In this document: positions 461-62,370 of the stretch, one piece after another
How positions within the stretch are numbered: the first letter of the stretch is position 1
Layout: the number at the start of each line of letters is the position of its first letter
NCBI GenBank assembly: GCA_964016885.1
Contig: OZ024743.1
Coordinates: 319,424,001-319,488,000 of the forward strand
Direction of reading: 5' to 3'
DNA: 64,000 nucleotides
From: Eledone cirrhosa
Lineage: Eukaryota
The notes under the pieces: model-generated
Database searches by the model: none
What the model saw: only the letters and a program-made list of their open reading frames with translations
What the model was told of the DNA's origin: nothing
Made by a program: the position numbers and the translations under genes

Positions 461-652
461 TATAAATATTTCGTATCTCCAAAGAAATACGGTTTTAGGA
501 AGCCGTAGCTATGCAAACACCGAGGGGCTAACGCGCTCTGGTGATGTGCAGCAGAAACAAGAGGGACAAGCGTCTATGCATTTCAGGCTTAACTGGCCTT
601 CGTCAGGACGGTCCCTCCCACCGTATTTCTTTGGAGATACGAAATATTTATA
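461..652 (-). mobile_element. Small non-coding element with 33 bp inverted ends and an internal hammerhead
   Basis: 461-493 (tataaatatttcgtatctccaaagaaatacggt) is the reverse complement of 620-652; flanked by TA-rich repeats. Confidence 0.75.
571..610 (-). ncRNA. Minimal type I hammerhead ribozyme
   Basis: Minus strand reads CGTC-CTGACGA-AGGC-CAGTTAA-GCCT-GAAA-TGCA-TA-GACG: intact core, 4 bp stems I and II, palindromic minimal stem III (ATGCAT), AUA triplet. Confidence 0.8.
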
Positions 653-822
653 CATATTGTATAAAGCTATGCTTGAAGCGAAATCCTATTTATTTTGTAG
701 ATATATACATATATATATACGTATATATAAATGTTTATATATAAATGTGTGAATATATATATATATATATATATATATATATATATATATATATATATAT
801 ATATATATATATATATATATAT

Positions 823-997
823 ATATCACAGAAAAAAGAGAATCAATGTTGCGACGAAAGGAATTTATTGGACATATTACAAATGTTTCTCGGGCGACCA
901 GCTCGATGCACGATCGATATGGTGATCACACCCGACTCTGAAATCAACACGGTTGATTCCTTTCGTCGCAACATTGATTCTCTTTTTTCTGTGATAT
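823..997 (-). mobile_element. Small element with 42 bp inverted ends and the 3' half of a hammerhead
   Basis: 823-864 is the reverse complement of 956-997; inside, the minus strand has a TCGGGTG...CGCCCGA stem then GAAAC-ATTT-GTA and AATAAA; shares GAT(T/C)CAGAGTCGGGT with the element at 62280. Confidence 0.6.
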
Positions 998-1127
998 CAT
1001 ACTCTCCCCTACGGGGGCATTAAGTGCTCATACGGCCTACCGCATACGGACGCTCTAAGCATCCAACACCAAGTATATATATATATATATATATATATAT
1101 ATATATATATATATAAATGTTTATATA

Positions 1128-2004
1128 CGAGGTGTGTCAGAAGAGTTCCAGGACTGATGTCACAAAAGATTTATTTCAAACACAAACGTCACACTAAGAG
1201 ATTTCTCCTTCAAAGTAATCTCCCTGTAGTCTAATGAACTTTTCCATCCTATTCTGCCACACTTGCATGCACTCCTGGAAGGATTCTTCCGGGATCCTCT
1301 GCAGTTCCGTCGTCACGGCCTTTTTGATGTCGTCCACGTCTTCAAAAAGGGTCCCCCCGGATCGTACTCGAAGATCCATGACTCATCACCGGTAATGACT
1401 GTCCCTAGCAAATCTGGTTCGGTTTCAAGACGCTCGATGATGTCCTGACACACTTGCATGCGTCGACCGTTATGGTTCATCGTTTTGGCACCATCTTGCG
1501 CAAACTTTCCGCATGTCCAAATCTTCAGTGAGAATCTTCCAGACGCTGTTCCGATTCATGCCCAGCTCATTTGCCATCAGTCGAACAGTCAGCCGACGAT
1601 CGCTAAGCACTATCTGCCTGACGCGCTCAAAGTTGACCCCAGTCCTAGTTGTTGAGGGCCTTCCGCTCCTGGGGGTCATCTTGCACCACTAAAAAGCACG
1701 TGAGCGTGACATCGTCTCATCTCCATACACTTGCTGCAGCAATCCCAGTGCTTCTGACAGGGTTTTCCCCAACCGTACCAGAAACTTCAAGTTTGTCGTT
1801 GCTCTGTGCTCATTGCTTGACGACCTGAAACAGAGGACATGTATATAAAATTATGAAGAAAAAAGTTTGATCGCTGCAGAGAGCTAAGATTATAGTTACA
1901 TACTCCAGGGGGATTACTTTGAAGAAGAAAACTCTTAGTGTGACGTTTGGATTTGAAATAAATCTTTCGTGACATCAGTCCTGGAACTTTTCTGACACAC
2001 TTCG
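1128..2004 (-). mobile_element. Mariner (Tc1/mariner) internal-deletion derivative with ~100 bp TIRs and TA target duplication
   Basis: TA|CGAGGTGTGTCAGAA...TTCTGACACACTTCG|TA; TIRs 1128-1229 and 1903-2004; transposase fragments PRSGRPST (HTH region) and C-terminal W..R...I..QGDYFEG; much of the catalytic core missing or frameshifted. Confidence 0.92.
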
Positions 2005-2172
2005 TATATGTATATATATATATATGTATATATATATATGTATATATATATATGCATATATATATATATATATATATATATATATATATATATATATATA
2101 TATATATATATATATATATATATATGTTTATATATATGTGTGTATATATATATATATATATATATATATATA
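2005..2172. repeat. (TA)n microsatellite
   Basis: Directly visible. Confidence 0.97.
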
Positions 2173-3629
2173 ATATTAAAGATACTGTTTATAGTTATGT
2201 ATATACTATACTATAAACAACTATAAACAAGGAAGATCAGTAATTTATTACTACCTTATTACCAGTAAGAGAAATAGCTCAATGTAAGAACATCAGTTGT
2301 TTTACAGAGCAGTTATATAGATTACACAAGTATCAAAGTTATGTTTAAAACATTTAATCGCTGACAATTATTTCTTCCAAACTTAAGCTTGGAGTTCTCG
2401 GAGCATTATCAATGTTTGTACATATAATTAACCTCCTATTCAACTGAAGAATCATACAGATACATATATATTGATGTTGTGGACAAGAGTTTCTTGTTTA
2501 CAGGGTGGAATGGATGCGACATATATTATACGAGAATTGTACAATAATTCAAATTACGATTCAAATTCAAATTCAAAATTAAAATTAAAATTAAAAGCAT
2601 AGGGTGGAATACATGCGATAGATAATACAAGAGAATAGTCTAACAATTAAATTAAAGAGATAGTACATGCGTTAGTCATATATAAAGGAATGGAACAAGC
2701 AAATGTATCATGTATATATGAGTACAGTATGGCAAGGTATTACATAAAATACAAGCACTTTAAACGAATATGTTAGTGTATTATGGTGGATGTAATGCGA
2801 TGATATTTTCTGTATAGTTCAAATTTGTATGTGTGTAGAATATGAAAGTTACAGATTTCACATCCATTACATATGTTAAGTTATATCTGTATTGAATGTT
2901 TGTTATAGTAATGGATTGTAACTTGGTGTTATTTTATCCATATTTATGGAATAGAGTTCTTCTACTGCGAGAATTTTCAACGGTTTAATATCCGGAAGTG
3001 GATATGGAATTAAGGGGAGCTAATGCGTAAAGGGAGGTAACTAGCTCATTATAATAATTAAATTCCTTGCTCTAATAGACATTATATAGTGCCTCAATTG
3101 AATCCCTTATATAAAAAGTTATATATTTATGTTTAATTTTAAATACAGTCTATTCTCTCATAATATATTAAATGCTTAATTAGATTGTTGTCTACCCAAT
3201 ATTATATAGTGCCACAATTGAATCCCTTATACAAAATGTTATATATTTATATTTAATTTTAAATACAGTCTAATCTCTCATAATATATTAAGGTTTCGTT
3301 AGATTGTTGTCTACCCAATATTTGGCAAGATGTGGAATAACGTATAGCTGTTTGCATGATAAATTAGATACATCCCTTGAGTTAATTAATCCTTTATATA
3401 CAATGTTATTAATTTATACATTAATTATAAATGTATATATAATTCATTGTTACATTTAATATTTAACGTTTATATATATTATATTATATTTCAATCACTA
3501 TATAATTATAAGTAATCTAAAGTAATTATATTAAAAGATGATGACTATAAAAATATTTCTAGAGTATAATGTTAGAGATAAAAATGATTTGTGTAGAGGA
3601 AAGGGTGGATCAAAGAGTGTGATGCAGCG

Positions 3630-60811: not shown

Positions 60812-61091
60812 CCTCAAATCAAGTCTGATTGAACAGAACTATAATGGAAGGTGTTTTAGCCGTGGTTATTCAGTGGTGGTTGTGGGGTAGACCTAGTTAC
60901 CCTAGGACTATTATTATCAAGAATAATCCGACATGATTTTAGAATGATTGAGTTATTATTTCTAGTGTGTCGAGTCATTATTAAGGTGCTCCTTTATTCT
61001 TTCATGTTAAACCTGTAGATGAGAAAGAAAGAATTTTTCAATAATTCTAATCGATTATCTAGCTTATTACGGTAGAAATCTTTAATATAAT

Positions 61092-61280
61092 TGTTTCTAC
61101 TTTTGGTACAAGGCCAGCAATTGCCCAGTACATGACTGGTACTTTATTTTATCGATCCCGTAAGGATGAAAGGCAAAGTTAACTTCGGCAGGATTTGAAC
61201 TCAGATCATAAAGGGCCGTAACTCTTTGCTACAAAGCATGGCGTCAGATCCTCTACCGATACTGCCAGTCCACCGCCCTC
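61092..61280 (-). mobile_element. SINE family A with 16 bp TSD
   Basis: TSD aaatctttaatataat at 61076-61091 and 61281-61296. Confidence 0.9.
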
Positions 61281-61534
61281 AAATCTTTAATATAATGAAA
61301 CAATGCTATGAAGATCTATAAATTTATATATCAAAATAATAATAGGAACATTTATAGATAAAATGTGAATTTTCCATGAGTCAACCTCTATTGTTGTTCA
61401 TATCTGTCGTAGTGAGACAGGCGACAGACAAACAGTAAAGCCTCAGTGAAGGCATTCTAGTTTCTTGTTTCCTTTTTATGATATTTTATTGTATTTTACA
61501 GAGTTGTTAGGTTATAGTTGATACGCCTCTGTTA

Positions 61535-61755
61535 GGATGGTGGATTAGCAGTATCGGTAGTGCTACGGGCAACAGGCATTGTAACATATACTTACGTCTC
61601 TTTAACTTCTGAGTTCAAATCGCGTCGAGGTTAGCGTTGCTTTTCATCCTCACGGGATCGATAAAATAAATTACCAGTAACGCACTGAAGTCGATCAAAT
61701 CGATTTCACCTTCCCCCAAAATTATTGGCATTATGCCTAAATCAGAAATCATTAT
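61535..61755 (+). mobile_element. Older, longer SINE family A relative (another remnant at ~61833-62090)
   Basis: A box, GAGTTCAAATC B box, central domain, tail GGCATTATGCCTAAATCAGAAATCATTAT. Confidence 0.82.
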
Positions 61756-62279
61756 ACACTCCGGTATGGGTCTTGCTTAGCCCCCTAGTTCAAATCCCCA
61801 ATTCGAGTTCGATGCAAAGAATACCAGTTAAAGGCCGATGAATTGGTGAAATTGTTAAAGTGTCGGTATCTGATCCGGCTCCGTGCATTCTGAACTCAAA
61901 TTCCGTCTCCTTCTGCCAGGAGCTGCGGCAGGCTGATAGTATCAGCAATCAAAGACAGATGAAAACATTGGTCCGATCTGATGATCAGTTCATTTTCTCT
62001 CGTTTACACTTCTGCAAATTTGATTGTCGAATTCTACCGAGGTCAACTTTGCCTTTCATCTTTTCGGAGTTGATGCCAGTCCAGGTGTGATATCTATATA
62101 TCTCTCTCTATATATACATACAGACGCACAGTCGCGCGCGCACACGCACATACATACATACATACATACATACACACACACACAGACACAGACACACACA
62201 CACACACACACATATATATATATATATATATATATATATATATATATATATATATATATATATATATAGTACCATAACA

Positions 62280-62370
62280 GAAGTCCGATGAGCTTTTGAT
62301 TCCAGAGTCGGGTCAGATCGATACATATCGAACCTTGAACTGATCAATAGCGAAATGCGCGTCACTATTC
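62280..62370 (+). ncRNA. Type I hammerhead with U4C core and long stem II
   Basis: AGT-CCGATGA-GCT.T.TTGAT...ATCAA.T.AGC-GAAAT-GCGC-GTC-ACT, between two (TA)n tracts. Confidence 0.62.

Follow-up and report, generated by a model that had tools for sequence, protein, structure and literature searches.

Introduction

Insertion into (TA)n and hammerhead ribozymes are known from the Hydra clade of Penelope-like elements (PLEs), which includes one Octopus family (Craig et al. 2021, PMC8557442), and the inverted arms and tails of PLE copies have been published (PMC8557442; PMC3846280). PLE hammerheads are weak or protein-assisted (PMC4209133; PMC11167929), and the retrozymes without long terminal repeats (non-LTR retrozymes) are described as PLE derivatives (PMC7229834; Li et al. 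2026, bioRxiv 10.64898/2026.07.22.740005). The Poseidon element PAc of the anole was studied in vitro (Frangieh et al. 2024, PMC11167929): AT-rich DNA was cut and both strands were extended, two internal start sites of the reverse transcriptase (RT) bounded the tail, uncut RNA was the main template and the hammerhead needed protein. That study mapped the start sites in one element, without a conserved signal; the way in which PLEs select such sites and produce tails and inverted arms bears on the RT family closest to telomerase. Here we analysed 64,000 nt of Eledone cirrhosa (contig OZ024743.1, positions 319,424,001 to 319,488,000; this whole stretch is called the window), in which a first-pass annotation, made from the letters alone, had listed nine hammerhead folds beside (TA)n tracts.

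Hammerhead folds in the window

The core and the three helices of a hammerhead were present on inspection at all nine positions: 571-610 (minus strand, family F1), 6757-6810 (plus, F2), 37279-37337 (F3), 38224-38264 (F4), 38687-38731 (F5), 39142-39192 (F6), 39718-39788 (F7), 45567-45609 (minus, F8) and 62280-62370 (plus, F9). A strict hammerhead descriptor matched the window four times, compared to 0.01 times (maximum 1) over 100 block dinucleotide shuffles; a relaxed descriptor gave 8 matches against 0.12 in 100 block-wise dinucleotide shuffles, and a third descriptor, tolerant of bulges, also gave 8, its 60 shuffles yielding 0.08. Six of the nine sites were accepted by the tolerant descriptor (571, 38224, 39142, 39718, 45567 and 62280). 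Site 37279 was accepted only with G permitted at the cleavage position, and sites 6757 and 38687 failed the strict, relaxed and tolerant descriptors. These three window copies have core or cut-site damage (H17=G at 37279, G8A at 6757, C3U at 38687) and are considered decayed, because the family majority sequence restores the fold.

Each of the nine sites is a member of a dispersed high-copy family, with 1,247-3,637 first-look candidates per family in the 3.0-Gb genome. For each family 40 candidates were scored and 30 loci were fetched, and the majority sequence was read from alignments of 22-45 distinct copies. Judged from sequence, the nine folds are hammerhead modules of nine sequence-distinct high-copy repeat families; each family majority fits a type I hammerhead, and self-cleavage of F1-F9 is predicted. 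The first-pass annotation had counted at least eight distinct folds, which agrees with this result, but had placed them in 'apparently unique DNA' between microsatellites, which does not, as the elements are high-copy families. We consider, with a probability of roughly 0.87, that the folds are hammerhead modules in the 3' ends of nine TA-joined families, four of which end coding PLEs or their sisters and two of which are non-coding tandem elements, and that the stubs likely arose by nicking of (TA)n and copying started just downstream of the hammerhead.

Genome-wide abundance of hammerheads

Ninety-nine evenly spaced 10-kb stretches (990 kb) were used as a genome sample. The tolerant descriptor gave 112 matches in it, compared to 0-3 in eight shuffles, and 55 of the 99 stretches had at least one; this comparable density indicates that the window is typical of its genome. 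A library of 414 hammerhead ends detected 218 homologous sites in the 990 kb, 104 of them overlapping descriptor matches and 114 failing the descriptor. Exact counts over the whole genome were 17,870 for a 33-nt stretch of F6 and 38,397 for an F3-group pattern, while reversed-pattern controls gave 0; summed, the two exact patterns set a hard floor of 56,267 hammerhead copies. The uncalibrated extrapolation was 3.3x10^5 (2.5-4.4x10^5), or 2.9x10^5 after subtracting one tandem-array family. The sample contained 11 (F6) and 20 (F3-group) exact patterns against 5.9 and 12.7 expected, and was thus about 1.7-fold rich (1.6-1.9-fold for the two patterns), so the extrapolation was lowered. The calibrated estimate is about 2x10^5 intact-looking hammerheads, and about 4x10^5 including decayed copies.

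The highest published count per genome that we found was 126,247, in the axolotl (PMC7229834), whose genome has about 28 Gb; as descriptors differ, the comparison is approximate. A giant squid paper gives 235 Rfam hammerheads (PMC6962438), and the available text of a 2026 Octopus vulgaris repeat annotation (PMC13282606) contains neither 'hammerhead' nor 'ribozyme'. Literature searches whose coverage excluded subscription papers, figures and bioRxiv supplements found no cephalopod-wide hammerhead counts. The genome is thus a large natural library of hammerhead variants.

Microsatellite-rich DNA folds readily, and the 91 matches that an Rfam scan of the window gave at E<=5 included no hammerhead family and were only hairpin-type microRNA noise. 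Both would fit chance folds in AT-rich self-complementary DNA, but this explanation deserves almost no credence: it is refuted by the 100-fold excess over shuffles, by the exact patterns (17,870 and 38,397 copies against 0 when reversed) and by compensatory changes in stem II that were scored with an anchor outside the stems. The density far above dinucleotide shuffles, in the window and in the sample, and the between-subfamily changes bear out the first-pass argument that unrelated complementary stems around a shared core speak against chance.

Cores, stems and covariation

In the family alignments the majority core was canonical in F1, F3, F4, F5, F7 and F8, U4C in F2 and F9, and U4A in F6. 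U4C is a known weak hammerhead variant (PMC3088659). The U4A core was not found in the available published passages on hammerhead variants (subscription papers, figures and bioRxiv supplements being outside the coverage). Stems I and II pair in all nine families. Stem III forms a palindrome in F1-F4 and F9 and nearly one in F7; in F5 and F6 it is a hairpin of 4-5 bp, and in F8 it is marginal. The stem III of 38687 and 39142 is not palindromic and has 4-5 bp with a 7-8-nt loop; that of 45567 (G-AA-C) is not palindromic either, and its self-duplex was calculated at +1.4 kcal/mol. The minimal, palindromic, dimer-type fold cited in the first-pass annotation therefore does not describe all nine sites. 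PLE hammerhead dimers were reportedly described by Lunse in 2017.

Covariation was tested in the F3 group at 113 sites anchored on the downstream side of the ribozyme, of which 84 could be parsed (best of two registers). The outer helix of stem II was AAG/CUU in 53 and AGG/CCU in 8 of the 84 parsed sites, and the inner helix was GUACU/AGUAC in 30, AUACC/GGUAU in 7, ACACC/GGUGU in 3 and GUACC/GGUAC in 2. Palindromes changed as whole units at descriptor-selected sites (CAAUUG/CAGCUG; UACGUA/UAUAUA). Stem covariation among genomic copies was therefore found between subfamilies, while changes within families looked scattered by eye across core, stems and loops. This suggests selection between mobile lineages, and not visibly on resting copies.

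The fold was retained at descriptor level in the majority of the best-matching copies of F1, F2, F3, F4, F6 and F8 (picked by similarity to the window), as would be expected if copies were kept as host-serving, cis-acting ribozymes in transcripts. We regard this as very improbable, since within-family changes are scattered, 114 of the 218 homologous sites fail the descriptor and the core or the cut site is damaged in three of the nine window copies; covariation between subfamilies is, moreover, what selection on mobile lineages should produce. Most genomic copies are likely inert relics.

TA tracts, element ends and fold-backs

A (TA)-containing tract lies at the end of all nine folds or at most about 160 nt away, and seven of the nine sites are within inverted structures (the exceptions are 45567 and 62280); the first-pass annotation had seen both features correctly. 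Genome-wide, the adjacency to TA is polar. In 96 sampled matches (16 tandem-array matches excluded; tract defined as (TA)5), a tract was present within 220 nt downstream in 83/96 and upstream in 20/94 (background 24%), and within 60 nt downstream in 40/96 and upstream in 2/96 (background 12.5%). The distances from cut site to TA were family-specific and mostly had two modes (110 and 157 nt in F1, 43 and 185 in F2, 50 and 145 in F3, 25 and 115 in F6, 35 and 100 in F7, 154 and 212 in F8, 52 and 155 in F9). The first TA-like run of F4 is internal to its monomer. F9 has the weakest link to TA, with 10 of 36 copies lacking a downstream TA in the locus.

Breakpoint analysis accounts for the two modes. 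Copies have fixed 3' ends 10-155 nt beyond the predicted cut site and a second end 50-140 nt further, this extra piece being the tail, so that the modes correspond to the short end and to the short end plus tail. The 5' extents are graded, indicating variable truncation (e.g. 52-1,649 nt in F8). Of 63 opposed-pair (palindromic) loci, 50 had the tail on one arm and not on the other. The positions of short ends and tail ends coincide with TA-like runs of 3-6 nt that belong to the element, which may hint at micro-homology to the target and would differ from what the anole element showed in vitro; such homology would not be sufficient, as longer TA runs nearby go unused.

The best F7 matches are nearly all fold-backs of 220-270 nt, and no coding parent was found for F5, F7 and F9. 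The hairpin-shaped stubs could accordingly be separate fold-back mini-elements, resembling miniature inverted-repeat transposable elements, that are mobile as such and use the hammerhead in their own cycle. This is very unlikely, although less so than a host function. The F7 query was itself biased toward fold-backs, the central junction of the F7 fold-backs varies from copy to copy, the arms are unequal with the tail on one, single-arm copies are common, and the same layout occurs at all lengths up to 4.8 kb, with RT and endonuclease inside.

Segments of 50-500 nt between TA tracts in the 990 kb matched the hammerhead-end library in 220 of 548 cases (28-34% of bases), and 91 of the 548 contained a hammerhead-homologous site; for longer segments the figure was 9-13%. 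The library may include neighbouring repeats, and it misses families without a detectable fold. The first-pass statement that DNA between microsatellites is 'largely ribozyme relics' thus holds locally at 36.5-39.8 kb, where five families are nested within 3.3 kb, and is an overstatement for the genome, where about one third of short inter-TA DNA qualifies. At this scale, a sizeable share of inter-microsatellite DNA here is made up of Penelope ends that are invisible to Rfam and Pfam.

Coding and non-coding parent elements

F2, F6 and sister subfamilies of F3 appear to cap coding Hydra-clade PLEs, and F8 a Neptune/Nematis-type element. Endonuclease frames were found upstream of F2, F6 and F8 at constant spacing. 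The window copy of F2 is the end of a coding Penelope-like element of 4.7 kb with a decayed RT-endonuclease frame, and an F2 endonuclease query gave 60,580 first-look candidates genome-wide. Between the stop of the endonuclease frame and the cut site lie 259 or about 990 nt in F6 copies and about 243 nt in F8 copies, the latter with a CX4CxxC linker (Neptune/Nematis; fits CX2-5CxxC). The sister subfamilies of F3 contained RT and endonuclease homologous to L400, described next, in four of four long inverted pairs (tblastn, L401-L404).

Locus L400 (G000:C4:5337300-5343800) is an intact sister of F2, with an 830-aa frame and two pseudo-LTRs of 1,142 bp that are 99.65% identical. A hammerhead lies 44 nt before the end of each pseudo-LTR, a TA tract follows the second, and the sequence after the first is an F2-type tail, i.e. 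the 5' untranslated region (UTR). By inspection, L400 has YRDD, a GIY-YIG endonuclease at its C terminus, RWR, DKT, CxCX5C, CxxC and CxH, which match the Hydra diagnostics of Craig et al. 2021 and place it in the Hydra clade. RWR and DKT were looked at in L400, and the CxCX5C linker was also read in F6 and F3-group frames. L400 is a candidate active element. It has an Asn-rich stretch between RT and endonuclease, and at least three further open frames of 829-830 aa exist in the genome. An initial 'Poseidon' label for F2 and F6 was dropped, as the Hydra-clade diagnostics fit instead, and an endonuclease-hammerhead link for F3 at L312 was ambiguous, with other repeats intervening, and was not used.

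F1 and F4 are non-coding tandem units, with monomers of 323 nt and 424-503 nt and longest ATG frames of 42 and 53 aa (one monomer each). Their PLE-style tails, head-to-head inversions and TA junctions tie them to PLE-type insertion. A 310-nt tandem unit with one hammerhead (CGCG palindrome) occurs at L313:250-3350, in 11 near-identical units, and at L316:8599-9713, and L317 holds a 527-nt tandem array; both look like typical retrozyme arrays. The first-pass annotation had described tiny non-coding elements; the fold at 6757, by contrast, ends a 4.7-kb coding copy and that at 45567 comes with the end of an endonuclease frame. The link to autonomous PLEs could be drawn for F2, F6, F8 and the sisters of F3, and not for F1, F4, F5, F7 and F9.

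A conserved tail hairpin

The tails of several unrelated Hydra-type families open with the same hairpin (RCUC-helix-UH-GAGY), in which RCUC is followed by a helix of 3-6 pairs enclosing a 2-65-nt loop, then by the two bulged bases UH and by GAGY. This hairpin occurred 137 times in the 990 kb, compared to 26-45 times in shuffled sequence, and 103 of the 137 had TA within 110 nt downstream. Of 225 hammerhead sites, 24 had it downstream at a distance of at most 170 nt, and none had it upstream. By family it was present in 13/31 copies of F2, 12/43 of F3, 8/34 of F5, 17/35 of F6 (two upper pairs only), 10/35 of F7 and 2/36 of F9, counts in which only tail-bearing copies could show one, and it was absent from F1 (0/48), F4 (0/38) and F8 (0/33). 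Tail-less copies of F2, F3, F6 and F7 break 0-8 nt ahead of RCUC. As they carry the hairpin, F5, F7 and F9 are predicted to be Hydra-type; it helps to place orphan stubs in a clade.

Pairing was supported by a test on family majorities that is blind to the upper helix. Fourteen of 23 clusters were fully paired, compared to none in slid registers, and 44 of 69 pairs were Watson-Crick, compared to 23 (maximum 36) when the partners were shuffled 5,000 times. At the outer R-Y position some clusters have A-U and others G-C; with other bulges in place of UH, as a control, 1/14 was fully paired. This test was run after a copy-level test, and the clusters are not fully independent. By eye, the hairpin is also present in three of the six Hydra consensus sequences available in File S7 of Craig et al. 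2021 (PMC8557442), from a coral and sea cucumbers: at the 3' end in Hydra-2_Amil and Hydra-2_Ajap and at the 5' end in Hydra-1_Ajap, with the upper helices UACAC/GUGUA, UGCU/AGCA and UGUCC/GGACA respectively. Hydra-1_Crog has a variant of it and the other two have none. In the available main text of that paper the word 'hairpin' occurs 0 times, and we found no publication describing the tail hairpin in a coverage without subscription papers, figures and bioRxiv supplements.

Tentatively, and at somewhat less than even odds, we propose that in Hydra-clade PLEs of cnidarians, echinoderms and this genome the conserved hairpin binds the telomerase-related RT and, in the manner of a template boundary element, sets the start of copying at its own base, and that this genome, because copying begins close behind the hammerhead, has become the densest hammerhead store reported. 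Intact-looking folds would be spaced about 15 kb apart, and a ribozyme with a U4A core would be among them in tens of thousands of copies. The hairpin might instead act as DNA, in the cDNA (complementary DNA) or the extruded target, for the endonuclease at insertion resolution. Craig et al. 2021 (PMC8557442) attribute tails to endonuclease resolution, and the D. virilis tail was required for endonuclease recognition of plasmid DNA (earlier work cited by Frangieh et al. 2024, PMC11167929). On the other side, the RT start sites that Frangieh et al. 2024 mapped on RNA lie on either side of the tail, and in several families a sense-strand G-U in the upper helix would be an A-C mismatch on the other strand, a weak point as the descriptor permits G-U. 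We hold this DNA role to be unlikely, though clearly worth considering; it would alter the role of the hairpin only and leave the PLE origin unaffected. The covarying hairpin at the first start site (at least 14 clusters) and the intact, young L400 make the question of start-site choice testable in vitro.

Proposed mechanism and points against it

In the mechanism we propose, the endonuclease would nick (TA)n and the protein would bind the tail hairpin, the predicted signal that positions two start sites. Both target strands would be primed, one from the base of the hairpin and the other from the tail end, and both cDNAs would run back through the hammerhead, usually stopping early. Two short cDNAs would then join at their truncated 5' ends, giving head-to-head arms with one tail. 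Every insertion, however short, would keep a hammerhead, which would explain their high density, and TA tracts would accumulate nested stubs, as at 36.5-39.8 kb. As copies read through the cut site, the template was presumably uncut or re-joined RNA, and a tandem or circular template would be needed for copies whose frame, UTR, hammerhead and tail all point the same way (such as L255, L092, L116, L401 and L404). The ribozyme may serve to trim tandem RNA into units, perhaps circles. Polar adjacency, coding parents, tandem monomers and stem covariation together support the first-pass proposal that many PLE or retrozyme families land on (TA)n and leave hammerhead stubs.

Several results weigh against this account. 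No coding parent was found in 2 Mb of loci for F1, F4, F5, F7 and F9, nor for F3 itself, and F5, F7 and F9 had no coding frame within 1.5-2.5 kb in the loci examined. Pfam assigns no family to the 830-aa frame of L400 or to the PLE fragments of the window (the remaining window frames in the Pfam scan are LINE-type RT; LINE, long interspersed nuclear element), and clades were called from motifs. The tail was on neither or both arms in 13 of 63 palindromic loci. The two test patterns were over-counted 1.6-1.9-fold in the sample, which makes genome totals rough. As for the hairpin, the copy-level pairing test was not significant (7/30 fully paired, compared to a mean of 3.8 and a maximum of 10), 9 of 23 clusters were not fully paired in the family-majority test, the F5 hairpin begins 15-20 nt past the short end, and RNAfold gave the full bulged hairpin clearly in only one or two of seven window tails.

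Arrangement of the elements in the window

F1 is a retrozyme-like, 5'-truncated copy at 456-708 (minus strand; a 323-nt non-coding monomer elsewhere). Its hammerhead has CUGACGA, the stem III palindrome UGCA and an AUA site; a short inverted arm with tail occupies 620-699, and the 3' end meets (TA)n at 453-464. A tenth family, absent from the first-pass annotation, forms a fold-back stub between TA tracts at 827-1073; its minus strand has, near 878, a hammerhead's 3' half, and its tail is at about 995-1073.

F2 begins with an inverted arm with tail (2173-3633, minus), which has a hammerhead copy near 2355-2408, G8A as in the other arm, and a tail hairpin at 2277-2310. The decayed coding part (3597-5290, plus) has the C-terminal half of the RT (YRDD), a GIY-YIG endonuclease and a CxCX5C linker of Hydra-clade type; its frame is broken by stop codons and frameshifts and, near 4043-4235, by an inserted short repeat. 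The 3' UTR or pseudo-LTR (5291-6843, plus) terminates on (TC)n(TA)n, and its hammerhead has the family core CCGAGGA (U4C), the palindrome CAAUUG and a GUC site. The inserted repeat is very common (4043-4235, 5583-5761, 61080-61280 and 61534-61687) and interrupts many PLE copies, often at AT-rich points.

F3 is a fold-back at 36542-37383, with a minus arm with tail (36542-36778, hammerhead 36698-36758), a plus arm (37220-37383) and an unrelated repeat fragment between them. F4, a retrozyme-like tandem element at 37376-38532, is inserted at the F3 end; its monomer of about 430 nt contains a TA-like stretch, and its units are 37376-38061 (minus) and 38061-38532 (plus), the latter with the hammerhead (palindrome CUAG). 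Contigs of four sequencing runs contained F4-like pieces and confirmed A at 38259, and showed nothing further. F5 (38542-38736) consists of an inverted tail (minus) and the decayed hammerhead; the family majority has a CUGAUGA core, a 4-bp stem III with an 8-nt loop and a GUA site. F6, the 3' end of a coding Hydra-type element, is a fold-back at 38857-39216 with a minus arm with tail (38857-39137, hammerhead 38986-39036) and a plus arm (39135-39216); the family core is CAGAAGA (U4A) with a CUU site. The F7 fold-back (39497-39823) has a minus arm with tail (hammerhead 39599-39669, tail hairpin 39543-39563) and a plus arm (39702-39823).

F8 (45413-45913, minus) is the 3' end of a Neptune/Nematis-type element, including the last endonuclease codons, and terminates on (TA)n; its hammerhead has an extra G after A9, a G-AA-C stem III and a CUU site. 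F9 (62268-62418, plus) is a 150-nt stub between two TA tracts, with a U4C core, the family palindrome CGCGCG and a GUC site.

A tail-only remnant of another Hydra-type family lies at 35934-36016 (plus; tail hairpin 35945-35968). This family (also at L287, L316 and L104) is very abundant, with tail matches in 25 of the 99 sampled stretches; GAAA, GUC and a long stem III without mismatches are present at its end, where no CUGANGA could be recognised. No complete fold could be built from the half-motifs at 35730-35886 and 36209-36260. The first of these, which has relatives at L343, L276 and L060, is an almost perfect palindrome that contains a CUGAUGA half-site and carries a tail at one side. 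The region 36077-36345, together with 34740-34850, has GAAA...UH followed by CUGAAGA or UUGACGA on the minus strand, and had no homologue in the 2 Mb of loci. A stub between TA tracts at 303-426 showed no hammerhead, and its sole relative, L038, is a fold-back. The segment 1116-2010, between TA runs, has inverted ends of about 157 nt and resembles a remnant of a Tc1/mariner-type DNA transposon. LINE-type frames (APE, RT, zf-RVT) occupy both strands of 11558-33769; one of them, at 11558-14467, is 969 aa long, and 28901-33769 holds tandem copies.

Comparison with known systems

Element hammerheads, TA targeting, fold-backs and tails were already published, and the first-pass annotation was in the main a correct recognition of known elements with one overstatement; beyond both lie the genome-wide scale, the U4A family and the tail hairpin. 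The elements share with the Hydra clade of Craig et al. 2021 (PMC8557442) the C-terminal GIY-YIG endonuclease, RW(K/R), DKT, the CxCX5C linker, CxxC and CxH, as well as a hammerhead near the 3' end, (TA)n insertion, an inverted truncated arm and a tail on one end. They differ in being longer (a 4.7-kb unit with a 1.3-2-kb 3' UTR, compared to less than 3 kb), in having tails of 50-140 nt rather than 30-40 nt and in the many very-high-copy families; none of the Hydra hammerheads in File S2 of that paper has a U4C or U4A core.

With the PLE pseudo-LTR hammerheads of Cervera and De la Pena 2014 (PMC4209133) they have in common many distinct families, a palindromic stem III, an extra nucleotide after A9, opposite-strand pairs 100-700 bp apart and mostly truncated singles. 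The largest counts given there, about 4,000 and 9,000 per genome, are below this genome. Unlike those hammerheads, F5 and F6 could close their stem III within a monomer, and F8 has neither palindrome nor stem. F1, F4 and the 310-nt and 527-nt arrays resemble retrozymes (PMC7229834; Li et al. 2026), whose monomers measure about 150-450 nt, in being non-coding tandem monomers with one type I hammerhead each; F1 and F4 depart from them in their PLE-style tails, head-to-head inversions and TA junctions. PAc (PMC11167929) likewise has two RT start sites downstream of the hammerhead that bound the tail, an AT-rich target and extension of both strands. It belongs, however, to another clade, and its starts are at an AC-rich stem loop, non-homologous to the target and inside the open reading frame, whereas here the tail is the 5' UTR, the copies end on short TA-like runs of their own sequence and a conserved bulged hairpin comes after the first site.

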